DNA of 64,000 nucleotides, from assembly GCA_021773015.1 (NCBI GenBank), contig JAJFKW010000001.1:1283305-1347304 (forward strand), written 5' to 3'. This DNA comes from Woeseia sp. (lineage in GTDB: Bacteria > Pseudomonadota > Gammaproteobacteria > Steroidobacterales > Woeseiaceae). Below are positions 25,766-36,552 of the stretch, piece after piece (within the stretch, counting starts at the first letter, position 1; every line of letters begins with the position of its first letter). A program made the position numbers and the translations under genes. Under the pieces are notes generated by a model, which worked only from the letters and a program-made list of their open reading frames with translations, was not told the origin of the DNA and made no database searches.

Positions 25766-28700
25766 TCAATCTGATTGGTCCACGTGCTTTTTTAGTTCGG
25801 AAACATCTTCGGCCAGACCTTTGAGTTTTTCGTGTGCTGCGACATCTAACGCGATTCGCTTATCCATACTCCGCACTAGCGGGAATAACGTATGTTCGAT
25901 TGTCTCGTTAAGTGTCCCGAGCACTTGCGCAAATTCTTTCGAAGGCCTGTTGGTTATCGATACACTGCTTTTATGCGACTTTACGGCGCTGCCCAGTGCA
26001 TCCAGCGACTTTTTTATTTTATCTGCGGTTTGCACGTATTCGGTGTGTTGTTTCGACAATGGGCCCGCCGGCTCAAGAGCCGCACCGAGCGCGGATATAC
26101 CTTGTACTAAATCGCCAATCTGTGCCGCAATTCGCAGGCCGGCATCCGTATCGTCGCCGCCCATTAACTTATTACGCAAATAGCCCTTCTTTATTTGTTC
26201 CCACCGCTCAACATCGGCCTCATCTTGCGACGCCAACAACTCAGAAAGTTTAAGTAGATTGGCCTCAGTACCCTGTGTCAGCAATTGCGCCTCACCACGG
26301 TAATGATCGCCAATCATCTGTTGGAGCTCTACATCGTTCATTGCAGAAGAAACCTTTTCGGCAAGCTTGTTCATGTTTCGATAACTACCTTGAAGCAAGA
26401 ATCGCGGTTCCGTTCGATACTTATCATCTTGCGCCGCTGATGCGATGTATTGTTTGTTAACTTTGAGAACCACGTCCTGAAGAACAAAAAGTCGCTTAAA
26501 TACTCTTACAATTTCAGATACCTCTGCTCCGCTATACTGATGCTTCAAGTCAGTGGTCGCGACATTACCTCCTCTGGCTCGCTCAATTAGCTTGTAGATA
26601 TCGTCCATGTCTCGCATAGCGAGCGGCGCCAAAACCGCATTCGACGTCAAGGAGTTCTCTATATAACTTAATTCGAATTGGCGCTCCTTCCCACTGAGAA
26701 CGTCACCCAAATTGTAGATATCCGCACGATTTGCAAGCATATCCGGAATTTTGAACACCTCACCCGATTCGGTGTAAGGGTTACCCGCCATGACAACGCA
26801 GAATTTCCGACCTCTCAAGTCGTACGTTCGCGTTCGACCTTTCCAAACGCCGTCTACACGGCGTGTTGAGTCGCACAGAGATATGAACTTCTGCAAAAAC
26901 TCGGCGTTCGTGTGCTGAATATCGTCTAGGTAAAGCATCACGTTGTCGCCCATTTCGAAAGCCAAATTGAGCTTGTGCAGTTCTTGCCGAGCGGTAGCGT
27001 TCGGTGCCATTTCTGGGTCAAGGGAAGTTACATCATGGCCAAGTGACGGACAATTTATCTTCATAAACGTCAATCCCAACCTACTTGCAACGTACTCCAT
27101 CAGCGTAGTCTTCCCATATCCTGGCGGCGAGATCATCATGAGCAAACCCTGCAAATCGGACCGTTTTGATTTACTAACAGTGCCGATTTGCTTTGCCAGG
27201 TTATCGCCAATAATTGGCAGATACGCGTCATTGATTAGTCGGTTACGCACGAATGAACTTAGAGGCTTTGGCTTGAACTCTTCTAGGCGCAGGTCCGCAC
27301 GCGCTGCATTTGCAGCGTCGCGTCGCAACTTTTGGTATCTATGAAATTTTGGTATGACACTGTTGCAATGGTCGTCCATTTTCAGCAAATACTTATCCAA
27401 AGTCACCGGCAATTCGCCATTTGCTATTATCGAGTGCTGACCAAACAAGTTTTTGACGGAAAACTCAACATCGGCGTTAATCATTCGGCGTTGCAGGCGC
27501 TTGCCTACAATGAGAATTGCTGCCGCTTCGGGCGCGTAGTGCAAGAGTTCGCTTTCACCCGCCGCATCAAGTGCCGCGCAGAGCCACGCATTCGCCACTC
27601 GCCATTGTTCTTTTGGCCTCGTCCGTAGGCTGTCTAACGTCCCCTGGACTTGTTTGAAAAGGTCCGCTTTCAGTGACTTTCGCAGTAAATCCAGCGCGCT
27701 CTTTGCGTGTTTCGATTGAGCGAATTTGCAGGGAACCCTGCGCAGCTCGGCTGCAAGGTAAATTGAACACCTGCGGATTGTTGAATCGTCAATCTCTAGG
27801 TGGTGGAGCGCCGCAAAATTGTTCACATGATTCGATATTTCCGCCTCAATCAATTCAATCGCTCGCGGATCAGAGAACTTTTCGTTCATCTGTCCCGCTG
27901 AAATCGCACGTTCCGGCAAAGACTGCAACGAATTCTCGGCGCCCTCGGACGAAGAGGTCTCAACTAAGTTTGCCCAAATTAGCTGGGCATATCCCCGGCA
28001 CAGCGGATCGAATCGCAATAAGTCGCTCTTGTTGATTGCAGGAACAATACAGCGGAGTATCGTGCATGCATCCGCGTCGTGGATACCTTTTTCGTATCCC
28101 TCCCTGTACCGTGGCGCAGCAAAGTTTTGCACGAGCTTTCCGAGTGCTTCACTGTTTTCGGCCAGGCTGGTGAGCTTGTTCCAATCTGTTTCTAATGAAC
28201 CGGAACGAATGTCATCCAACAGCCGGTACGCTAGATACTCCCCTCGATATACAGTCGTTGTTTCGGACTCAAGGCCTAGCGTCCAGTACTTGCGGAGATC
28301 GTTGAGTTCGGGATGATCAATATTTTCGAAATACTGCGTTCCGACCAAGTGCAGCGCCAATCCGTCATCTCGAGGTATGATAGTTAAGTCCAGGTCCTGC
28401 GTATTGACGCTGAATTTGTGTGCTGATCCCAGCTTAATAACCTTGCCACCGTCCGAGAATAGGTCCGTCTTATCCCTGAGTGACCGCAGCGCTTGATTAC
28501 GAATCATCTTCAATCGTGAATCGACATCGTCAGCTTTTACTGAACTATCTAGTTCGCGAAGCTGTTCGACAATATCTCGCACTTTGATGACAAGGGCGTC
28601 TGAAGCCAGATATGTATTCAGCTCATCGTCACTTTCAAATCGACGTGTGCGCCGCTCAATGTTCTCGAGCATTCGACCAGCAGCGTCGGCGAGAGTTTGC

Positions 28701-31018
28701 GCCCGTGAATTTCTTGCATCGAGCAACTGCTGTTTACGCGCTTCGAAGGCTTCATAAACCTCCTCACGCTTGGCAATTATGTCTGCAACAAATTTATCCT
28801 GTTCGCTGAATTGGCCTTCCATCTCCTCCAATTGAATAAGCAGGCGTGCTAGCAACTCCTCGCATCGTTCCGGTGAGTTTGCGACCCCTAAAGCATTTGT
28901 AACACTTTGCGAAAAAAGTTTAAATTGGGCACCGAATTGCTCAACCGATTCCGACGTACCAAGGCGTTCTTTTCGTTGCCGACCACGTGATCGCGTCTGA
29001 TTTAAATTTGAATAAACATCCGATATTGACTCCACTATTCTGGTCTGGATCGTCGCGTCATCAACATTTAATGTGGCGATTAGGTCCGAAAGCAAATCGA
29101 GACCTGCCGCAATGTTATCCAGTTTATCTAGCTCAGGCACTAGTTCAGCGACAGTTTGCCGTTGCTTTATTGAGGAATCATGAGACTCGATCTCCTCAAT
29201 ATAGGAGTCCAATGCATGTGTTCCCGCCAGAAACTCAGCGGCTTCTTTGCCTACTGAGTCGTTGAGAGCAAGTAGTTCGGAATCCATAGCCGCTATCCGA
29301 TCAACATCGATATACCTGTACTCTTTGATCGTCGCAAGATGGCCACGGTGACTTCGAATTTCGTTGAGCGCCTCAACGTATTGATCAATATTGCGCCAAT
29401 CGGTACTGTCTACCGTCGTCGATATTCGTTGTTGTTCGCCTTCCGCGTCTGTCATCGCCAAGGCCGATTGCCGTCGAATGCTCTCAACTTTTTCGAATTC
29501 ATCTACGATTAGCTCGACAGTTTCTCTAATTTCTCGGACAACTGTGCCGATAGCAGCCGCTTGACCTTCTCGAATCCAAAAATAATCGTCAAACAACTTT
29601 TCCGCAGCCTTCCGAAGAAATTCGTAGTGTTTTACCGATACGGATTCATCTTTGATAATTCTGCATAAGCTGAAGAAGTCGGACACGCCGCGAACGAGTT
29701 CGGCATTACCAATTCTTGAAAAAAACGACTGACCCGCGGGGATGGTATTGAAGAATTCCTCATCCCCGTACGGTGTAGTCCATATCTGCATGGGGTGAAT
29801 TCGCGCCGGTTCGTCGCCCGCAGTAAATACTATGACTGTTCCGTCGCGCGCGAGCGCGTAACCGTGACTGACTAATGGATTTTGCAGAGACTTTGAGATT
29901 ACGTTGTACGACAAGAGTGCGACGACACCCTTGGTTGGTTCATAGAACACGAAAAGAACGTCTTCACCGTTGGGTGAGCGCATCTTTCGCTTGAATTTCA
30001 AGCCGCGCGTATCTATGCCGAATGCCTTGTACTCGCCAGTTTCCAGATAAATTCCTTCGGGAAATATGATTCCGTGGTCCTCTGGAAGCTGAACACATGA
30101 ATCAGCAAGGGAGTCGATCTTTTGTATTTCTGATGTACGCGTGTTGTATACCAGATACCGCCAGCGGATTTCTTTGTAAGGTAATATTCTTACGAGAATT
30201 AGTGCTCCGACTCTCGCATACTCGAATTCAGCGTCGTCCAGTGACTGGGTTACGTCATCCACGGGCTCGCTATACACGCCGCGTCCAACTTCCGTATTGT
30301 CTTCAATTTTTACCGTTAGATCACCATTCGTCGTCTCGACAAACAATTCGTCGAGTATGTTGACGTGTGGGTGGCGGCCGTGTGAAATATCTTCACGTTT
30401 GGTCGGCATCCATTCGAATTCATAAGACTCGGGGAGCTCCAGATCTCGCTCGCCACGGTTATCAATGTAGGTAACGTCGTTATCGTTCGAAATATCCCAG
30501 CGAAAAACTCGCCGATCATCCAAGCGTTCGCCAATCTGGAATCCAGCTAGAAGTCTTCCGCCCTTTTGCACTAGCTGCACGAGGCGAGTTTCTTTGTAGT
30601 ATCGGTAAAGTTCGCCGAAATCTTCCCGAAATTGGGCATCCGATAGAAAGCTCCCGCCTATGGAGACTTGCTCCATCGTATGCTTATCACCGTCAACAAT
30701 CAGCTTGTACAACGAGAACACATCTTCCACTTGAGTAGATTTTTTCAATCCAATGAAAACGTTGTATCCGAATAGCAGCAATTCGCCGATCTGGACTATG
30801 TCTCGCCCAACGCAATTGTTCTCTGTTCTCACTCGTGTTCGAGCGACTACTGTCATTTCTGTTGCACCGAATTCTTCAGCGCGAGCAGAATTCAAAGAGA
30901 TCGCTTGCTTTTCCAGCGAATCGCCATGTTCGATCAGGCGATTACGAATAATTTCGTAGGCACCGCCGTCGGCGACCGCCTTATCCACGAGTTCAGTAGT
31001 TCGACTCTCGTTTGCCAT
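25766..31018 (-). CDS. giant (1750 aa) AAA+ ATPase: beta-rich N-terminal region, long helical/coiled-coil middle, AAA+ core near residue 1300. It resembles large proteins annotated as 'DNA repair ATPase' (DUF3686-like).
   Basis: Walker A ISPPGYGKTT at 27104-27121, Walker B VMLYLDDIQ, sensor-1 VVMAGN. It begins 64 nt downstream of the flotillin stop. Confidence 0.85.
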   Translation of the reverse strand: MANESRTTELVDKAVADGGAYEIIRNRLIEHGDSLEKQAISLNSARAEEFGATEMTVVARTRVRTENNCVGRDIVQIGELLLFGYNVFIGLKKSTQVEDVFSLYKLIVDGDKHTMEQVSIGGSFLSDAQFREDFGELYRYYKETRLVQLVQKGGRLLAGFQIGERLDDRRVFRWDISNDNDVTYIDNRGERDLELPESYEFEWMPTKREDISHGRHPHVNILDELFVETTNGDLTVKIEDNTEVGRGVYSEPVDDVTQSLDDAEFEYARVGALILVRILPYKEIRWRYLVYNTRTSEIQKIDSLADSCVQLPEDHGIIFPEGIYLETGEYKAFGIDTRGLKFKRKMRSPNGEDVLFVFYEPTKGVVALLSYNVISKSLQNPLVSHGYALARDGTVIVFTAGDEPARIHPMQIWTTPYGDEEFFNTIPAGQSFFSRIGNAELVRGVSDFFSLCRIIKDESVSVKHYEFLRKAAEKLFDDYFWIREGQAAAIGTVVREIRETVELIVDEFEKVESIRRQSALAMTDAEGEQQRISTTVDSTDWRNIDQYVEALNEIRSHRGHLATIKEYRYIDVDRIAAMDSELLALNDSVGKEAAEFLAGTHALDSYIEEIESHDSSIKQRQTVAELVPELDKLDNIAAGLDLLSDLIATLNVDDATIQTRIVESISDVYSNLNQTRSRGRQRKERLGTSESVEQFGAQFKLFSQSVTNALGVANSPERCEELLARLLIQLEEMEGQFSEQDKFVADIIAKREEVYEAFEARKQQLLDARNSRAQTLADAAGRMLENIERRTRRFESDDELNTYLASDALVIKVRDIVEQLRELDSSVKADDVDSRLKMIRNQALRSLRDKTDLFSDGGKVIKLGSAHKFSVNTQDLDLTIIPRDDGLALHLVGTQYFENIDHPELNDLRKYWTLGLESETTTVYRGEYLAYRLLDDIRSGSLETDWNKLTSLAENSEALGKLVQNFAAPRYREGYEKGIHDADACTILRCIVPAINKSDLLRFDPLCRGYAQLIWANLVETSSSEGAENSLQSLPERAISAGQMNEKFSDPRAIELIEAEISNHVNNFAALHHLEIDDSTIRRCSIYLAAELRRVPCKFAQSKHAKSALDLLRKSLKADLFKQVQGTLDSLRTRPKEQWRVANAWLCAALDAAGESELLHYAPEAAAILIVGKRLQRRMINADVEFSVKNLFGQHSIIANGELPVTLDKYLLKMDDHCNSVIPKFHRYQKLRRDAANAARADLRLEEFKPKPLSSFVRNRLINDAYLPIIGDNLAKQIGTVSKSKRSDLQGLLMMISPPGYGKTTLMEYVASRLGLTFMKINCPSLGHDVTSLDPEMAPNATARQELHKLNLAFEMGDNVMLYLDDIQHTNAEFLQKFISLCDSTRRVDGVWKGRTRTYDLRGRKFCVVMAGNPYTESGEVFKIPDMLANRADIYNLGDVLSGKERQFELSYIENSLTSNAVLAPLAMRDMDDIYKLIERARGGNVATTDLKHQYSGAEVSEIVRVFKRLFVLQDVVLKVNKQYIASAAQDDKYRTEPRFLLQGSYRNMNKLAEKVSSAMNDVELQQMIGDHYRGEAQLLTQGTEANLLKLSELLASQDEADVERWEQIKKGYLRNKLMGGDDTDAGLRIAAQIGDLVQGISALGAALEPAGPLSKQHTEYVQTADKIKKSLDALGSAVKSHKSSVSITNRPSKEFAQVLGTLNETIEHTLFPLVRSMDKRIALDVAAHEKLKGLAEDVSELKKHVDQSD

Positions 31019-31082: not shown

Positions 31083-32918
31083 TTACGATTTACCAGCAGG
31101 TCCTGAAACGTCTGCTGTTTCCGATCCCATGCTGGCAACTTTCGCCAACAGCGCTTGGATCACTCCGCTCTTTTCCGCAAGACCGTCAACAGCCTTGCCA
31201 ATCGACAGTGACTTCGCGAAATTGTCGAAGAAATGCTCCTCGCCTCCGACGATGTCGATGTGCGCCTTTTCAAGAGCAATTGCCAGAATTTCGGCATTTT
31301 CTTTCGCAATCTCTTTGCCGGCATCCATAGACGCTAACGCTTCTTTAAACGCTGTTTCCAGCCCCATACGATATTCTTCATGGGCTCTCGTTTCACCCGT
31401 CATTCCAGCCATTGCCGCAAACTTATCCGTCAATCCTTCGGCCTCCGCCTGGAATTGCGCTTTTGTGACGTTGGCGTTCGCCATACCCACCTCAGTCTTC
31501 GCAGAAGCTTCCGCTGCACCCTTTGCTCTGACGATGTCAGCCTCGGCCAGTCCAGATGCGGCGTCCTCCGCCTGCACGCCCTCGGCAAGCACCTTCTTGG
31601 CGTCAGAGTCTTTTCCTGATGCAATGAGTCTTGCTTCCGCAAGCGTCGTAATTTCGGCTGCCTTGTGAGTTGCCGCAATTTCTTGGGCTTTCGCGGCGGT
31701 TGTTTCTTTGACCTTCTCTTCTTCAGCCTGCGCCTGAGCGGCTAAGACCTGAACCTGTTTCAAGCGATCCGCCTCCGAAACTTCGCGAACCTCCTTAATC
31801 CTTTCCTCTTCGACCGCCACTGTTTTGTCGACGGCAACACGCTCTCTAATGACGTTTGCAATTTCCTTTTTCTCAACCTCGACTGCTTTTTCAGCAAGCA
31901 CGGTTTCTACACTGACCTCACGCTCTCTAGAAACGACTTCTAGATCGCGTGCTCGCACCACTTTCTCTTCCTCGATTGCAACAGCACGTTGTCGATTTTG
32001 ATCGGCGACTTCGATTTCGCGTTTCTGATTTTCAGTTTGAACGAGCAGATCTTGCTCTACTTGTATATGTGTTGATTCGGCCTTGCGCCTCTCCTCCTCC
32101 TGTATTTTTCGCGTCTCCGCTTCTTCCCGCGCTTGGACGGACAGAATTTCCCTCTGCTGCTTGGCTTCCGCGTCTGCCTGTTGGCGTTCCAGCTCCAACA
32201 TAGCTTCAACCGTGCTGACATCTTTTTTCTTGATAGCCAATTGTTCGTCACGTTCAAGTTCGTTTGTCCGAACATTCTGTGTCGCGGTCAATTCAGTTAT
32301 TTTCTTGATGCCCTCAGCATCAAGAATATTTGTTGGGTCAAGCGCCGCCTTAGGAGTCTGCTCAAGGTAGTCGATCGCGACATCTTCTAGTACGTAACCG
32401 TTTAGATCATCGCCTATGACCTCAATAATTTTCTCTCTGAAGTCCTGCCTATTCTCAAATAGACTGACAAAATCGACTTGCTTGCCAACCGTTTTTAGTG
32501 CCTCAGAGAACTTCGCCGAGAACAATTGGTCGACGGCGGCCTGATCTGATGCACGATATGCGCCGATGGACTTGGCTACTTTCAATACATCTTCTGCCGT
32601 TTCATTTACACGCAAGTAAAATGCCACGGAAATATCAGCCCGCATGTTGTCTTGACAAATTAGGCCATCGCTACCACGTCTATCAACTTCTAGCGTAATT
32701 AGCGATATTTTCATTAGCTCTTTTTTGTAGATTATTGGATAGACCAGCGCTCCAGTGAAGTGAACTTTTGGCCTAGCACTCATATCGTTTACGATTAGCG
32801 CCGTGCCTTGTTCAACTTTGTAATAAAACGCCTTAAACATTCCAGCGAGGCCCAATAACACAAGGACCACCACGCCTGCCCATGTGAGAATAGGCATCAA
32901 TACGGTCAGGTCTGCCAT
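31083..32918 (-). CDS. yqiK: flotillin-family protein (SPFH/Band-7 domain, YqiK-like) with a long charged coiled-coil
   Basis: N-terminal TM helix followed by an SPFH domain. Its E/R/K-rich coiled-coil is typical of YqiK. Start at ATG 32918 (MADLTVLMPIL) with a GGAG RBS; the ORF extends to a TTG at 32978. Confidence 0.8.
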   Translation of the reverse strand: MADLTVLMPILTWAGVVVLVLLGLAGMFKAFYYKVEQGTALIVNDMSARPKVHFTGALVYPIIYKKELMKISLITLEVDRRGSDGLICQDNMRADISVAFYLRVNETAEDVLKVAKSIGAYRASDQAAVDQLFSAKFSEALKTVGKQVDFVSLFENRQDFREKIIEVIGDDLNGYVLEDVAIDYLEQTPKAALDPTNILDAEGIKKITELTATQNVRTNELERDEQLAIKKKDVSTVEAMLELERQQADAEAKQQREILSVQAREEAETRKIQEEERRKAESTHIQVEQDLLVQTENQKREIEVADQNRQRAVAIEEEKVVRARDLEVVSREREVSVETVLAEKAVEVEKKEIANVIRERVAVDKTVAVEEERIKEVREVSEADRLKQVQVLAAQAQAEEEKVKETTAAKAQEIAATHKAAEITTLAEARLIASGKDSDAKKVLAEGVQAEDAASGLAEADIVRAKGAAEASAKTEVGMANANVTKAQFQAEAEGLTDKFAAMAGMTGETRAHEEYRMGLETAFKEALASMDAGKEIAKENAEILAIALEKAHIDIVGGEEHFFDNFAKSLSIGKAVDGLAEKSGVIQALLAKVASMGSETADVSGPAGKS

Positions 32919-32964
32919 ATCACTAGCTCCAGTTGTTGATTTTTGTTTTGTTTGTTGGAGCAGA

Positions 32965-33645
32965 TCACTCGCCAACAAACTCTTCTTCTGAAATCACTCG
33001 ATAAATATTTTCGCTATTTAGTTTTTCGAATATCACGACCCTGTCGCCACGTTCAAAACGATCATCCCCACTGGCTCTGACCTTCAGGATCAGGCCAGCG
33101 CCACCATCATTGAGCGTCGCCTCTCCAAATTCGCGGTCAACTCTGGAGGTTCTAACGATTGCCGTTTGACCCAGCACCTGCTTGATAGTTTCTTGGGTCG
33201 CTTTCTCAAATAATGGGCGAAGCGGTTTAATGAATACACTCGTGATTTTCGCCGCAACGTATAGGGTGACCGCTAGGACAGGCAATCCAGCAACATAGCG
33301 CAACAATCCGTCGGGTATTGCCCAGAACAACAAAAACACGGTGTAGTAACAAAGCATCCAGCCAGTCAATACCAAGATCGAAAGCGACACCGTGACCGGT
33401 ACACCAACCAATCCTAATCGCAACAAGAGTCCTGCAAGCACTTCCGGCGTCGTGTGCGACGACTCGCCGCCGACGTCCACGCTATCGAAATCAAAATCTA
33501 GGATATCCAGGTCAACCAAACCGAGCACCGCCCCAGCCCAGAACAGGACACAGATTAATAAAAGCACCGTGTAAAAGGCCGTGGGGAATGACCCAATATT
33601 CTGGTAAAACGGATTCATCTCATCACTTAAGAATATGGCGAACAT
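32965..33645 (-). CDS. yqiJ: NfeD-like inner membrane protein (YqiJ-like: N-terminal TM helices plus C-terminal OB-fold beta domain)
   Basis: 226 aa. Hydrophobic N-terminal two-thirds, then a C-terminal beta-rich region (TAIVRTSRVDREFGEATLNDGG...VVIFEK). It sits immediately upstream of flotillin, like the E. coli yqiJK pair. Confidence 0.7.
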   Translation of the reverse strand: MFAIFLSDEMNPFYQNIGSFPTAFYTVLLLICVLFWAGAVLGLVDLDILDFDFDSVDVGGESSHTTPEVLAGLLLRLGLVGVPVTVSLSILVLTGWMLCYYTVFLLFWAIPDGLLRYVAGLPVLAVTLYVAAKITSVFIKPLRPLFEKATQETIKQVLGQTAIVRTSRVDREFGEATLNDGGAGLILKVRASGDDRFERGDRVVIFEKLNSENIYRVISEEEFVGE

Positions 33646-33666: not shown

Positions 33667-34362
33667 CTATGCTTTTGACTGCCGATTTTTTAGTCGTTCA
33701 AGTACTTCTTCTGCACTCTTGCTTTTTACCTTTATGCCAGCGTCTTCCAAGCGACTATCGAGCGATTTGTCATCTGTTTCGTCCGCTAATTCGCGCGCCG
33801 CATTCATTTCGGCTGAACGCAATGCCTGACGTTCTTTGATGCGGTCCAGAGAGTCCATTGCAGTCCTCAGTTTCGTATTCGAACCGCTATGACGTTCTGA
33901 AACCGCGGCCTGCGCACGTTGGACATTGTCGGTGGCTTTTACGGTATCGATTTGCTGTTTCATCCGCTGTATATCCCGCTCGGCTGCTTTGATTGCAGAT
34001 CGCAGCTGCTCAGCACTTGTGGCATAGCCCGCACCAGCTTCTTCTTCTGTTTTGACTTGGTTTTCCAGATTAGCGATTTTCGCTGCAACCTCATGTGCCA
34101 AGTCCATATCGTCTTTATCGAGCGCCTTGAGCGCATAGCCTTCATTATCCGCAATTTTCGTTCGGACGTTGGCTGATTTCTCTTCCGACAACTTTTGCCT
34201 CGCGATGATGGCTGCCAGACTATCTTTGGACTGTCTCAACTCGTCAGATGAGTCTCTTATTTCCTGATCGAGTATTCGCAGAGCTTGGCTATCGACGATC
34301 GCCTCACCAGCTTCGTTTGCACCCCCTCTTAATGCGGTAATCATTTTGGCCCAGACGTTCAT
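33667..34362 (-). CDS. yjfJ: PspA/IM30-family protein, YjfJ-type paralogue
   Basis: 231 aa. Aligns along its length with E. coli YjfJ (LDQEIRDSSDEL, TVKATDNVQRAQAAV, LDSRLEDAGIKVKSKSAEEVLERL). Strong RBS GAGAGGAGA upstream. Confidence 0.85.
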   Translation of the reverse strand: MNVWAKMITALRGGANEAGEAIVDSQALRILDQEIRDSSDELRQSKDSLAAIIARQKLSEEKSANVRTKIADNEGYALKALDKDDMDLAHEVAAKIANLENQVKTEEEAGAGYATSAEQLRSAIKAAERDIQRMKQQIDTVKATDNVQRAQAAVSERHSGSNTKLRTAMDSLDRIKERQALRSAEMNAARELADETDDKSLDSRLEDAGIKVKSKSAEEVLERLKNRQSKA

Positions 34363-34375
34363 TGTATTTCTCCTC

Positions 34376-34993
34376 TCAATTGTCCGTTACGGACATCAAT
34401 AAATCTGCATATGCTTCAGTTGCATTGATCACATTGCTTCCAAGTACTTCTATCTCGTAGACAATATCGCCGAGATCGGACGCCGAGCTCAGTGAGCCGA
34501 ACATAAAGTAGTAGTCGTCATCGGCGCGCTGGCCAAGGCAAATGGTCGACAATGGGAAATATTTATGGGTACGCAACACCGATTCATTGAATTCTCTTTC
34601 ATCACGTACTTCTGAAACTGGCCACAATACTGCCTCGACGATAATTTGCTCCCCAGCGACCGTTAGAAATATTGGTAAATCGCCATATTCGTGCATCACG
34701 ACGTGTAGGGTGGGATCCAAGCCGTCAATCAGTTCCACGCTTGCGTGCTTATCACGTACCAAGGCTGTTTCGACGAGATCGTCGTATAACGCACCAGTTC
34801 GCCAAAGCGGGCGATGAGAATGTCTTTCACCGTTTTCTTCTAAGGCACGCGCCCCCACGCGCAGGTCTTTTTCCAGTGCGCGCGCCTTATCTGAGTTTTC
34901 TGGGCGAATCCAAATTTCCTTTTTGATTAGGCCCTGGTCTCGCAAACGTCGCCGGTATTCGCGTTGGTAATGTGCTGATGTTTTCACGTTCAT
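34376..34993 (-). CDS. first gene of the operon; tentatively YjfI/DUF2170-like with a basic N-terminal extension
   Basis: 205 aa. Assigned from its position upstream of the yjfJ-like gene; N-terminus MNVKTSAHYQREYRRRLRDQGLIKKEIWIRP is basic. The family call is tentative. Confidence 0.6.
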   Translation of the reverse strand: MNVKTSAHYQREYRRRLRDQGLIKKEIWIRPENSDKARALEKDLRVGARALEENGERHSHRPLWRTGALYDDLVETALVRDKHASVELIDGLDPTLHVVMHEYGDLPIFLTVAGEQIIVEAVLWPVSEVRDEREFNESVLRTHKYFPLSTICLGQRADDDYYFMFGSLSSASDLGDIVYEIEVLGSNVINATEAYADLLMSVTDN

Positions 34994-35008: not shown

Positions 35009-35044
35009 TGTTACATGTAATTACGCAAATTATTACATGTAACA
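35009..35044. promoter_or_regulatory. candidate operator: two copies of the perfect 10-bp palindrome TTACATGTAA separated by 12 bp, lying 16-51 bp upstream of the 34993 start codon
   Basis: Read directly: TGTTACATGTAA-TTACGCAAATTA-TTACATGTAACA, a 12-bp perfect inverted repeat overall. Confidence 0.5.
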
Positions 35045-35160: not shown

Positions 35161-36408
35161 CTATAAACTCAAGACAGCGTCTCTCCCAGTGAAATAAGCG
35201 CCGTGGACAGTCGCGTAGTGCTCGATCGACCCCGCCTCTCCGGCGAAATAGACCCTATTCTCCAACGATTCGCCATAAGCCTGGCGTACGCTCACAGAGC
35301 CAGGCACAGCAGCACTATAGGCACCCTTAGTCCATTGATCGCCGCTCCAGGCACTGACAATGTGTTTACGCACTTTTATTGAAGTGCGACTTCCGAAGAC
35401 TTTTTGCAAACGATTTTCAACGTAATCTAGATTCGCCCGCTCACCTGCTTTTTCCATCCATGCAGCAAGCCTACCACCAGCAACAATTTCGATGTAATCG
35501 TGACCACACGGACGATTGCGAAAATGCAGTGGGTCTTCACCTGTGGCGCGAACTGTAAAGTCGGCCGGCAAATTCGCTAGACTGTGGCTATTCAGTGCAA
35601 GGCAAATTCTACTGCAATCACCCATCGGTAAAGCTGTAATCGCAGCCCGTTTCCGGTCTGGCAATCCAGGCACAAACTCGATCTCGTTGGTCGACAATAC
35701 GCCTGTAGAGACAGTCAAAATTACCCTGCGCGCGGCGACCGGTCCACGCGGAGTTTGTAATTTCACAGTCGAACCAGACCAATCAATTGTCGACACCGGA
35801 CAGTTCAATCGAATCGGCAGTTCCGAGCCATAATGCGCGATTAGCGCTCCAAAGCCGTCCGTTACTGCATGGTCGTTTCCTTGTCGGATATATGACATTG
35901 CGTCCTTCACCGACACGCAATCGACATCGTGCGTGTAATCCTGAGCAAAAAACATGAAAAAGTATGGTGCCCACCGACTATCGCTTTCCACAACATCGAA
36001 AACCGACAACGCATCGTCGCCATTTGCCGCGGCTTCCGCTAAGGCTGAATATTGCCGCTCAAAATACTCGTCACATTCAGCAGCAGCGGCTGCTGGTAGC
36101 CAAACACCATCCTCAAAATAGTCTGCTCGCTTAAGGAAATCTTCACGCTCTTCTGACAGCGCTATGTTTGCCTTTTGTGCATAACGAAAAAACGGATTGA
36201 TACCTGGCGAGTGAATCCAATGTGCACCTAAATCAAATGGAACGCCTGGCGCCAAATATTCGGTGTAAGCGCGGCCGCCTATGCGATGCGACGCTTCCAA
36301 GACGACAAAGTTGCGACATTCTCTCGTGAGATATTTTGCGGCGGCCAGACCCGCAACACCTGCCCCAACGATTGCAATATCGAAATCATAATGACAATTA
36401 CCCATTTC
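35161..36408 (-). CDS. FAD-dependent amine oxidase family oxidoreductase
   Basis: Dinucleotide-binding motif DIAIVGAGVAGLAAA...LEASHRIGGR. Start at ATG 36408; the ORF extends to 36423. Confidence 0.75.
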   Translation of the reverse strand, partial: EMGNCHYDFDIAIVGAGVAGLAAAKYLTRECRNFVVLEASHRIGGRAYTEYLAPGVPFDLGAHWIHSPGINPFFRYAQKANIALSEEREDFLKRADYFEDGVWLPAAAAAECDEYFERQYSALAEAAANGDDALSVFDVVESDSRWAPYFFMFFAQDYTHDVDCVSVKDAMSYIRQGNDHAVTDGFGALIAHYGSELPIRLNCPVSTIDWSGSTVKLQTPRGPVAARRVILTVSTGVLSTNEIEFVPGLPDRKRAAITALPMGDCSRICLALNSHSLANLPADFTVRATGEDPLHFRNRPCGHDYIEIVAGGRLAAWMEKAGERANLDYVENRLQKVFGSRTSIKVRKHIVSAWSGDQWTKGAYSAAVPGSVSVRQAYGESLENRVYFAGEAGSIEHYATVHGAYFTGRDAVLSL

Positions 36409-36552
36409 CCAAGAATAACTCACAAGACAAGCGGAGAATTGAATCTAGGCGATTCTCGGTCTTATGTACCGATCTCATGTCAAAACACTCACGCGTTTTG
36501 TCGAGCGCCGCTCATTGAGCGACGGGGTTCGAATGCTTATCGAATCAGGAAT

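Follow-up and report, generated by a model that had tools for sequence, protein, structure and literature searches.

The closest described relatives of the system examined here are the bac operon of Pseudomonas aeruginosa and a wider group of membrane-stress operons. The P. aeruginosa cluster was named bacABCD (Mace, 2008; PMC2587700), and Wallart et al. placed two further genes, PA14_16190 (bacE) and PA14_16200 (bacF), on the bacABCD transcript by reverse transcription PCR; in a bacA mutant, both the BacE and the BacF proteins were increased 6- to 9-fold, with PA14_16190 up 8.9-fold (Wallart et al., 2024; PMC10948618). PA3728 has been listed as an “ATPase” that is recurrently mutated in cystic fibrosis isolates (PMC8190622), and PA3728–PA3732 are induced by phage infection (PMC12041424). 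Ravi et al. described this type of operon and its architecture, predicted a function in ATP-dependent membrane dynamics, and remarked on the wider spread of abbreviated operons from which PspA is missing (Ravi et al., 2024; PMC11237479). Here we examined a 64,000-nucleotide stretch of Woeseia sp. DNA (contig JAJFKW010000001.1, positions 1,283,305 to 1,347,304; hereafter the window, whose numbering we use throughout), and within it a minus-strand gene at 25766..31018 that, from an ATG start, encodes a giant BacE-type AAA+ ATPase of 1750 residues (aa). An earlier note on this DNA had singled out the same open reading frame and had argued that its product works at the membrane rather than in DNA repair.

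The ATPase gene is the final gene of a five-gene minus-strand operon that encodes, in order, a BacA-like protein, PspA, a YqiJ/NfeD-like protein, a flotillin and the ATPase. This is also the order in P. aeruginosa, where BacA (DUF2170), BacB (PspA), BacC (a small transmembrane protein) and BacD (PaFlo3) precede the ATPase BacE (PA14_16190 / PA3728; PMC10948618), and other Pseudomonas loci show exactly the bac order, with an ATPase approximately 55% identical to the window protein. From this synteny in other Pseudomonas, together with the “ATPase” annotation, we infer that the window protein is the equivalent of P. aeruginosa BacE. The two operons differ in that the P. aeruginosa operon has a sixth gene, bacF, and a proposed sigma-54 site, whereas the window operon lacks both and carries a palindromic candidate operator instead. 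The family described by Ravi et al. is the one to which the window ATPase belongs, with identical architecture and operon, and the inference of a membrane role for this operon is already in print there (PMC11237479). With the architecture and neighborhood of the family published, the novelty of the window protein is modest; our additions to that study are the finding that the DDIQH Walker B is invariant, a complete list of the motifs, a map of the domains drawn from structure, and the recognition of a single flotillin subfamily as the 1:1 partner.

The pairing emerged from a comparison of 80 genome loci, in which synteny was counted for the 65 where 3 kb or more of sequence preceded the ATPase gene. 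In every one of these 65, a YqiJ/NfeD-like gene and then a flotillin gene lay directly 5′ of the ATPase gene on the same strand. The closest relatives were Woeseiaceae metagenome-assembled genomes (MAGs), and the phyla carrying the trio include Bacteroidota, Deinococcota and Actinomycetota, in addition to a distant metagenomic clade in which the trio is kept although the ATPase is only 31% identical (N-terminal 500 aa) and the flotillin 30% identical (E 5e-64). The local order was a Tir-type chaperone, PspA, a DUF1449 protein, a 722-aa hypothetical protein and the ATPase in Hymenobacter; a 198-aa protein, a 652-aa protein and the ATPase in Deinococcus; and a 144-aa protein, flotillin and the ATPase in Streptomyces.

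A search of a plasmid collection (72,556 records) gave the same picture. Thirteen records carried the ATPase, and these were exactly the 13 best flotillin matches (39–62% identity), with the two genes adjacent. None of the 298 further flotillin records, mostly from E. coli/Shigella, was among the ATPase-positive plasmid records, and the lower matches listed from this set (H27–H53) covered only the SPFH part, at approximately 30% identity. Because the 13 ATPase plasmids and the 13 best flotillin matches are the same records, the pairing between ATPase and flotillin is specific and reciprocal, 1:1 with one flotillin subfamily. Across at least five phyla, the ATPase is tied genetically to a single flotillin subfamily and to the NfeD-like partner of that flotillin. 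Flotillin identity was also correlated with that of the ATPase, giving r 0.87 over the N-terminal part and 0.24 over the C-terminal part; we discarded this correlation as confounded by shared phylogeny and by unequal alignment spans.

Given its constant flotillin and YqiJ/NfeD-like neighbors, the ATPase most likely acts on membrane scaffolds and not on DNA. The other accessory genes are likewise membrane-related: PspA accompanied by a CesT-like chaperone (39/65 loci), a hydrolase of the PLD type (16 loci) and TelA (6 loci). Synteny kept across phyla, together with the published co-transcription in P. aeruginosa, strongly supports the membrane role that the earlier note had favored over DNA repair; the constant partner is the flotillin with the YqiJ/NfeD-like protein and not PspA, which was present in 39 of the 65 loci. 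We put at about even the chance that the ATPase is a dedicated partner of one long-flotillin subfamily and of the YqiJ/NfeD-like protein, acting on membrane scaffolds by means of ATP. Under this proposal, the N-terminal propeller and helical arm would dock the ATPase onto the cytoplasmic side of a flotillin/NfeD assembly, the AAA+ module, with its complete invariant site and a candidate trans-acting arginine, would oligomerize upon ATP binding, and ATP would drive the assembly, dismantling or resetting of the flotillin scaffold. In operons that also encode PspA, the ATPase may in addition act on a PspA/ESCRT-III-like polymer recruited by the scaffold during membrane stress. Membrane association of the ATPase is well supported, while for remodeling as its mechanism we can only infer. 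A broader version, which we put forward tentatively, would make this family the missing ATP-dependent remodeler that opens, disassembles or resets flotillin/NfeD cages and, by way of a partner-gated Asp-Asp site, couples these cages to membrane repair of the PspA-type ESCRT-III kind.

Some considerations weigh against this proposal. Adjacency demonstrates a functional link but not which protein acts on which, and physical contact with flotillin, NfeD or PspA, like ATPase activity across the family, is a prediction. In addition, deletion of PaFlo3 (PA14_16180) resulted in an approximately 20% drop in biofilm and otherwise had no phenotype (PMC13086221), effects slight enough that the system is dispensable under laboratory conditions. 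The role of bacterial flotillins, and the assembly and disassembly of SPFH scaffolds, form a puzzling field in which deletions are often without phenotype, and the strict pairing of one flotillin subfamily with a large and widespread ATPase family (no fewer than 4450 hits in the database, forming 722 clusters at 50% identity) offers a concrete biochemical handle on such scaffolds.

The best-known pairing of an SPFH protein with an AAA+ ATPase is that of HflK/C with FtsH, in which the scaffold confines or regulates the ATPase. Flotillin/NfeD could similarly confine or regulate the window ATPase, whose substrates would then be lipid-handling enzymes or other proteins in or close to the membrane. 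The variable genes that follow the ATPase gene in other loci could be clients or co-effectors in such an arrangement. In 16 loci (Pseudomonas, Lysobacter and others; e.g., L023 11991–12680) this gene encodes a single-HKD PLD-type hydrolase, which is probably BacF, and in 6 loci (Luteimonas, Pseudoxanthomonas and a distant clade; e.g., L084 13001–14221) it encodes a TelA-like protein. The two systems are alike in that, at the inner membrane, an AAA+ ATPase is coupled functionally to a scaffold of the SPFH family. FtsH, however, is a membrane-anchored protease of the classical clade with a DE Walker B, whereas the window ATPase is soluble, has no protease, and combines a DD Walker B with a large propeller and a helical arm. 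We consider the FtsH-like arrangement unlikely, as the 1750 residues contain no protease or effector domain, transmembrane anchor or canonical threading pore loop, and the strict 1:1 pairing with a flotillin subfamily fits a dedicated partner at least equally well.

PspA was a less regular companion than flotillin. It was found in 39 of the 65 loci, on the same strand in 34, and the combination of PspA and CesT-like chaperone occurred in approximately 60% of loci, in keeping with the remark of Ravi et al. on abbreviated operons. In five loci (L014, L064, L069, L072, and L074; Marinobacter and a Cellvibrionaceae MAG), PspA lay on the opposite strand, divergent from the trio; these PspA proteins were much more diverged (28–39% identity), and a DUF2170 gene was detected in three of the five. 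This suggests that the PspA module and the YqiJ–flotillin–ATPase trio are separable units that have associated repeatedly. In B. subtilis, an SPFH protein reportedly links PspA to the membrane (Scholz et al., 2021; PMC8581546).

The presence of PspA raises the possibility that the ATPase is an analogue of Vps4, with the PspA polymer as the real substrate to be disassembled or recycled, and flotillin merely as a landing platform. PspA and a CesT-like chaperone are encoded in the window operon as in the 39 loci above, Ravi et al. drew a parallel between Snf7/Vps4 and PspA-linked AAA+ ATPases (PMC11237479), and a review describes bacteria as lacking a Vps4-like regulator for PspA, which would leave the niche vacant (PMC7619361). 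The resemblance is that of an AAA+ ATPase encoded with PspA, a member of the ESCRT-III superfamily, and predicted to remodel membranes. Yet approximately 40% of loci, along with the operons of Deinococcus, Streptomyces and the distant clade, have no linked PspA and still keep the flotillin and the YqiJ-like gene, although an unlinked genomic PspA is possible in these cases. Unlike Vps4, moreover, the window ATPase is not demonstrably of the classical clade, it has no conserved aromatic pore-loop-1 at residues 1323–1340, and Pfam scans of the whole protein and of its sub-segments found neither an MIT domain nor any other known ESCRT-III-binding module. With PspA optional in the operon, we doubt that the ATPase is a Vps4 counterpart. 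As a proposed partner of the flotillin scaffold, the family is nonetheless relevant to the control of PspA/ESCRT-III-like polymers where bacteria have no Vps4.

To map the ATPase, we combined Pfam with an AlphaFold2 model of residues 1–1190, which had a predicted local distance difference test score (pLDDT) of 82, and of approximately 85–90 in the propeller region. The model begins with a helix at residues 2–50, followed by approximately 27–28 strands at residues 56–414, sufficient for seven propeller blades, then by very long helices (420–850), a small beta unit (860–900) and a helical domain (925–1174). DUF3686 (PF12458; E 6e-194, 645 bits against a cut-off of 25, above the gathering score) spans residues 35–480 (29579..30916; this and all following segments of the gene are on the minus strand) and includes the beta-rich core at 56–414. 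Foldseek matched this core to generic propellers only (Sec12, Ski8, PON1, prolyl oligopeptidase), and we regard it as a predicted generic beta-propeller. The long helical arm at residues 420–850 (28469..29761) has helices of up to 58 residues and contains DUF7902 (PF25472; 82 bits against a cut-off of 26, above the gathering score) at residues 601–684 (28967–29218); this DUF7902 arm consists of spectrin-like helical bundles. Next come a small beta unit and a second helical domain without a family match (residues 853–1250; 27269..28462), the AAA+ alpha/beta core (residues 1290–1440; 26699..27151), the AAA+ lid region (residues 1441–1600; 26219..26698), and a C-terminal helical tail (residues 1601–1750; 25769..26218) made up of a variable linker and the conserved terminal helix FPLVRSMDK.

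The alpha-beta-alpha core and helical lid that define the AAA+ superfamily fold were both present, with generic AAA Pfam models giving only weak matches on residues 1290–1420. Sequence and profile searches of all PDB chains returned P-loop-level matches only (E ≥ 0.03), and no solved structure among these chains was related to the ATPase beyond the P-loop. Isolated sub-segments were also scanned with Pfam to guard against domains masked by bias filtering, as occurred with the flotillin, and yielded only DUF3686, DUF7902 and generic AAA models; neither these scans nor those of the whole protein found a protease or other effector domain, and no transmembrane segment was found in the 1750 aa. A second, degenerate AAA+ domain within residues 1–1190 was considered and rejected for want of a credible candidate. 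The ATPase is a soluble cytoplasmic protein that joins one AAA+ core to a propeller and a helical arm. Its non-AAA regions fall in no characterized family, their matches being limited to generic folds and to domains whose function is unknown.

Most of what the earlier note had read from this gene agrees with the map. The open reading frame, GYGKTT at 27104–27121 and the LYLDDIQ motif were placed and read correctly, the beta-rich N-terminus followed by a helical middle is seen in the AlphaFold2 model (strands 56–414, helices 420–850), and the search for domains outside the AAA+ module left its view of them intact. The single AAA+ core near residue 1300 also holds, with the P-loop preceded by approximately 1297 residues and not the 1250 it had counted. 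The C-terminal region is helical as described, but the supposed 300-aa tail was too long, since about half of it is AAA+ lid with QGSYR and the true tail is approximately 150 aa.

As a separate observation, we came across proteins of approximately 1040 aa that have DUF3686 and DUF7902 without an AAA+ module (P0310 / L085 8001–11123, and P0311). They sit in an 8.9-Mb genome among Por_Secre_tail genes, and their called neighbors are not flotillin-like by Pfam hits. These may represent a propeller-arm unit functioning alone, or decayed copies.

We next turn to the nucleotide site. The search for family representatives used just the N-terminal 500 residues, which kept their choice blind to the ATPase site. 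Of the clusters found, 722 passed E ≤ 1e-3 and 245 passed E ≤ 1e-30; members of full length had 1450–2036 aa, and conservation was counted over 70 diverse representatives containing the AAA region. The Walker A motif, SPPGYGKTT (residues 1297–1305; 27104..27130), conforms to GxxGxGK[ST], with S-P-P-G-Y-G-K identical in 70/70 and both K1303 and T1304 invariant. The Walker B motif, MLYLDDIQH (residues 1361–1369; 26912..26938), takes the variant form hhhhDD (MLYLDD) in place of hhhhDE, the canonical Glu being replaced by Asp family-wide: D1365, D1366, Q1368, and H1369 were found in 70/70 and I1367 in 68/70. The Asp-Asp pair to which the earlier note had drawn attention is therefore no private substitution of this copy, and hhhhDD/E is a recognized Walker B variant (PMC2323615).

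Further candidate elements were found on the C-terminal side of Walker B. A candidate pre-sensor-1 beta-hairpin (residues 1386–1405; 26804..26863) lies between helix alpha3 and strand beta4, with a conserved basic flank and an aromatic tip at W1392 (W/F/Y in 56/70), and its strands appear in an AlphaFold2 model at model residues 238–243 and 246–251. N1413 of AGNPY (26780..26782; 70/70), at the end of beta4 according to that model, is a candidate for sensor 1, and R1547 of QGSYR (residues 1543–1547; 26378–26392), likewise invariant, is a candidate for sensor 2. R1431 of PDMLANRAD (residues 1425–1433; 26720..26746; 70/70) is a candidate arginine finger, as the analogous xxDRF motifs in RuvB, Lon, and MoxR suggest. 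N1413, R1431, and R1547 all stand at the expected positions in sequence and model, with low pLDDT around R1431, and their putative roles are assigned on that basis. In the beta2-alpha2 loop (residues 1323–1340), no conserved aromatic pore-loop-1 was found among the 70 representatives.

This pattern of conservation points to a selected, presumably working nucleotide site with Asp in place of the catalytic Glu throughout the family. DnaA, DnaC, and the STAND NTPases also use a DD Walker B, and ATP serves them mainly as an assembly switch. By analogy with these proteins, the family-invariant Asp-Asp makes slow or partner-gated, switch-like hydrolysis plausible for the window ATPase, and with the conserved aromatic pore-loop-1 also absent, the enzyme would be more switch-like than a free-running unfoldase.

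The same motif could place the protein among STAND-like sensors, in which case the propeller would sense a signal such as a phage product or damage to the membrane, and the DD site would act as an ADP/ATP switch leading to oligomerization and a stress or defense response. STAND NTPases and DnaA/DnaC-type switches typically have a DD Walker B, the combination of a propeller and a nucleotide switch recalls Apaf-1, and the phage induction of PA3728–PA3732 cited above would suit a defensive role. The likeness to DnaA/DnaC and STAND NTPases is nevertheless limited to the motif, with no sequence or fold evidence of membership: the only profile match was nSTAND_NTPase5, which at 14.4 bits (E 0.034) fell far short of its cut-off of 34, NB-ARC and NACHT gave none, and in fold the protein matches AAA+ proteins that form rings, with candidate residues for an arginine finger and for sensor 2. 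PADLOC returned nothing significant for the ATPase (best IetA, E 0.0018, P-loop only), and for the operon proteins its best matches (E 0.002–0.007) covered P-loop or coiled-coil segments only. With no effector domain in the protein, no ATPase copies found in phage records and a housekeeping neighborhood in the window, we consider a STAND-like sensor improbable, and a reading of the operon as a defense system was rejected on the negative PADLOC result and the lack of phage copies.

The database name of the protein is “DNA repair ATPase,” and Pfam describes DUF3686 as an “ATPase involved in DNA repair.” If this label were correct, the protein would be a repair ATPase related to RuvB, and some similarity to RuvB does exist, from which the label may stem. 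It is weak, however, at 15.9 and 15.6 bits for the NCBIfam RuvB models against cut-offs of 282 and 299, and it spans only some 40–70 residues around the P-loop. Pfam scans of the whole protein and its sub-segments found no DNA-binding domain, and no repair gene recurred among the identified neighbors in the window and five other loci; these neighbors belong to membrane stress or housekeeping, the one exception being a divergent LexA-family regulator in Hymenobacter. Our literature search found no mention of DUF3686 and, as the earlier note had suspected, no experimental basis for the label. We consider a RuvB-related repair function highly improbable, and the name, which has spread through databases, appears baseless and misdirects annotation.

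Among other AAA+ groups, MoxR-type ATPases (CbbQ, NorQ) and AAA_5/midasin differ from the window ATPase, which has a DD rather than a DE Walker B and approximately 1290 unrelated N-terminal residues. No VWA protein that could pair with the ATPase was found in the operon, whether in the window or in the other loci with identified genes. ClpB, Lon, and ClpA score equal to MoxR/AAA_5 on the AAA+ core, so that its assignment to a clade is not decisive.

The remaining genes of the operon were assigned as follows, all on the minus strand. The first (34376..34993) encodes a DUF2170/BacA-like chaperone-regulator of the CesT-Tir type (Pfam E 6e-47), which scored 280.6 bits with the NCBIfam BacA model, slightly below the cut-off of 300. 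It is followed by the optional partner PspA/IM30 (BacB-like; 33667..34362; Pfam E 6e-46) and by a constant partner, a multi-pass YqiJ/NfeD-like (DUF1449-type) membrane protein with a soluble C-terminal domain (32965..33645). The long flotillin (31083..32978; 631 aa), the other constant partner, comprises an SPFH/Band 7 domain, an EA-rich coiled coil and a C-terminal domain, and its start is probably the ATG at 32918. At full length, this flotillin had no Pfam match even at E ≤ 10, while its N-terminal 233 residues alone matched Band_7 (E 1e-7); the EA-rich coiled coil probably hides the domain through composition-bias filtering. Flotillins of this kind easily stay “hypothetical,” as in the Deinococcus and Hymenobacter records.

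Upstream of the operon, the 10-bp palindrome TTACATGTAA occurs twice (35011–35020 and 35033–35042), 18–50 nucleotides 5′ of the first gene, against a chance expectation of 0.03. One or two copies also precede the bacA-like gene, in the same place, in 11 other loci from different genera (L003, L009, L012, L013, L016, L033, L039, L049, L068, L071, and L073), and we consider the TTACATGTAA pair a candidate conserved operator. The BacA-like protein has a basic N-terminal extension of approximately 45 residues, HYQREYRRRLRDQGLIKKEIWI (34859–34993, minus strand), that is conserved in 31 loci and gave a weak, non-significant MazE-like match (E 0.04). The HYQREYRRRLRDQGLIKKEIWI extension could be the DNA-binding part that accounts for the derepression of the operon in the P. 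aeruginosa bacA deletion. Expression of the ATPase is tied to the membrane-stress operon, probably under repression by the BacA-like protein. A sigma-54 promoter, as proposed in P. aeruginosa, was not found upstream of the operon, and matches to it across the window were at chance level.

A flavin amine oxidase gene (35161–36423, minus strand) lies 167 nucleotides upstream of the operon on the same strand. Links of polyamine oxidase to PspA operons have been reported previously; as a conserved polyamine link, this neighbor was rejected, because its conservation does not extend to the other loci. Downstream of the window ATPase, the genes are convergent and on the plus strand, with no bacF, PLD-type or TelA-like gene among them, and the wider neighborhood in the window is made up of housekeeping genes (alaS, GST, SDR).

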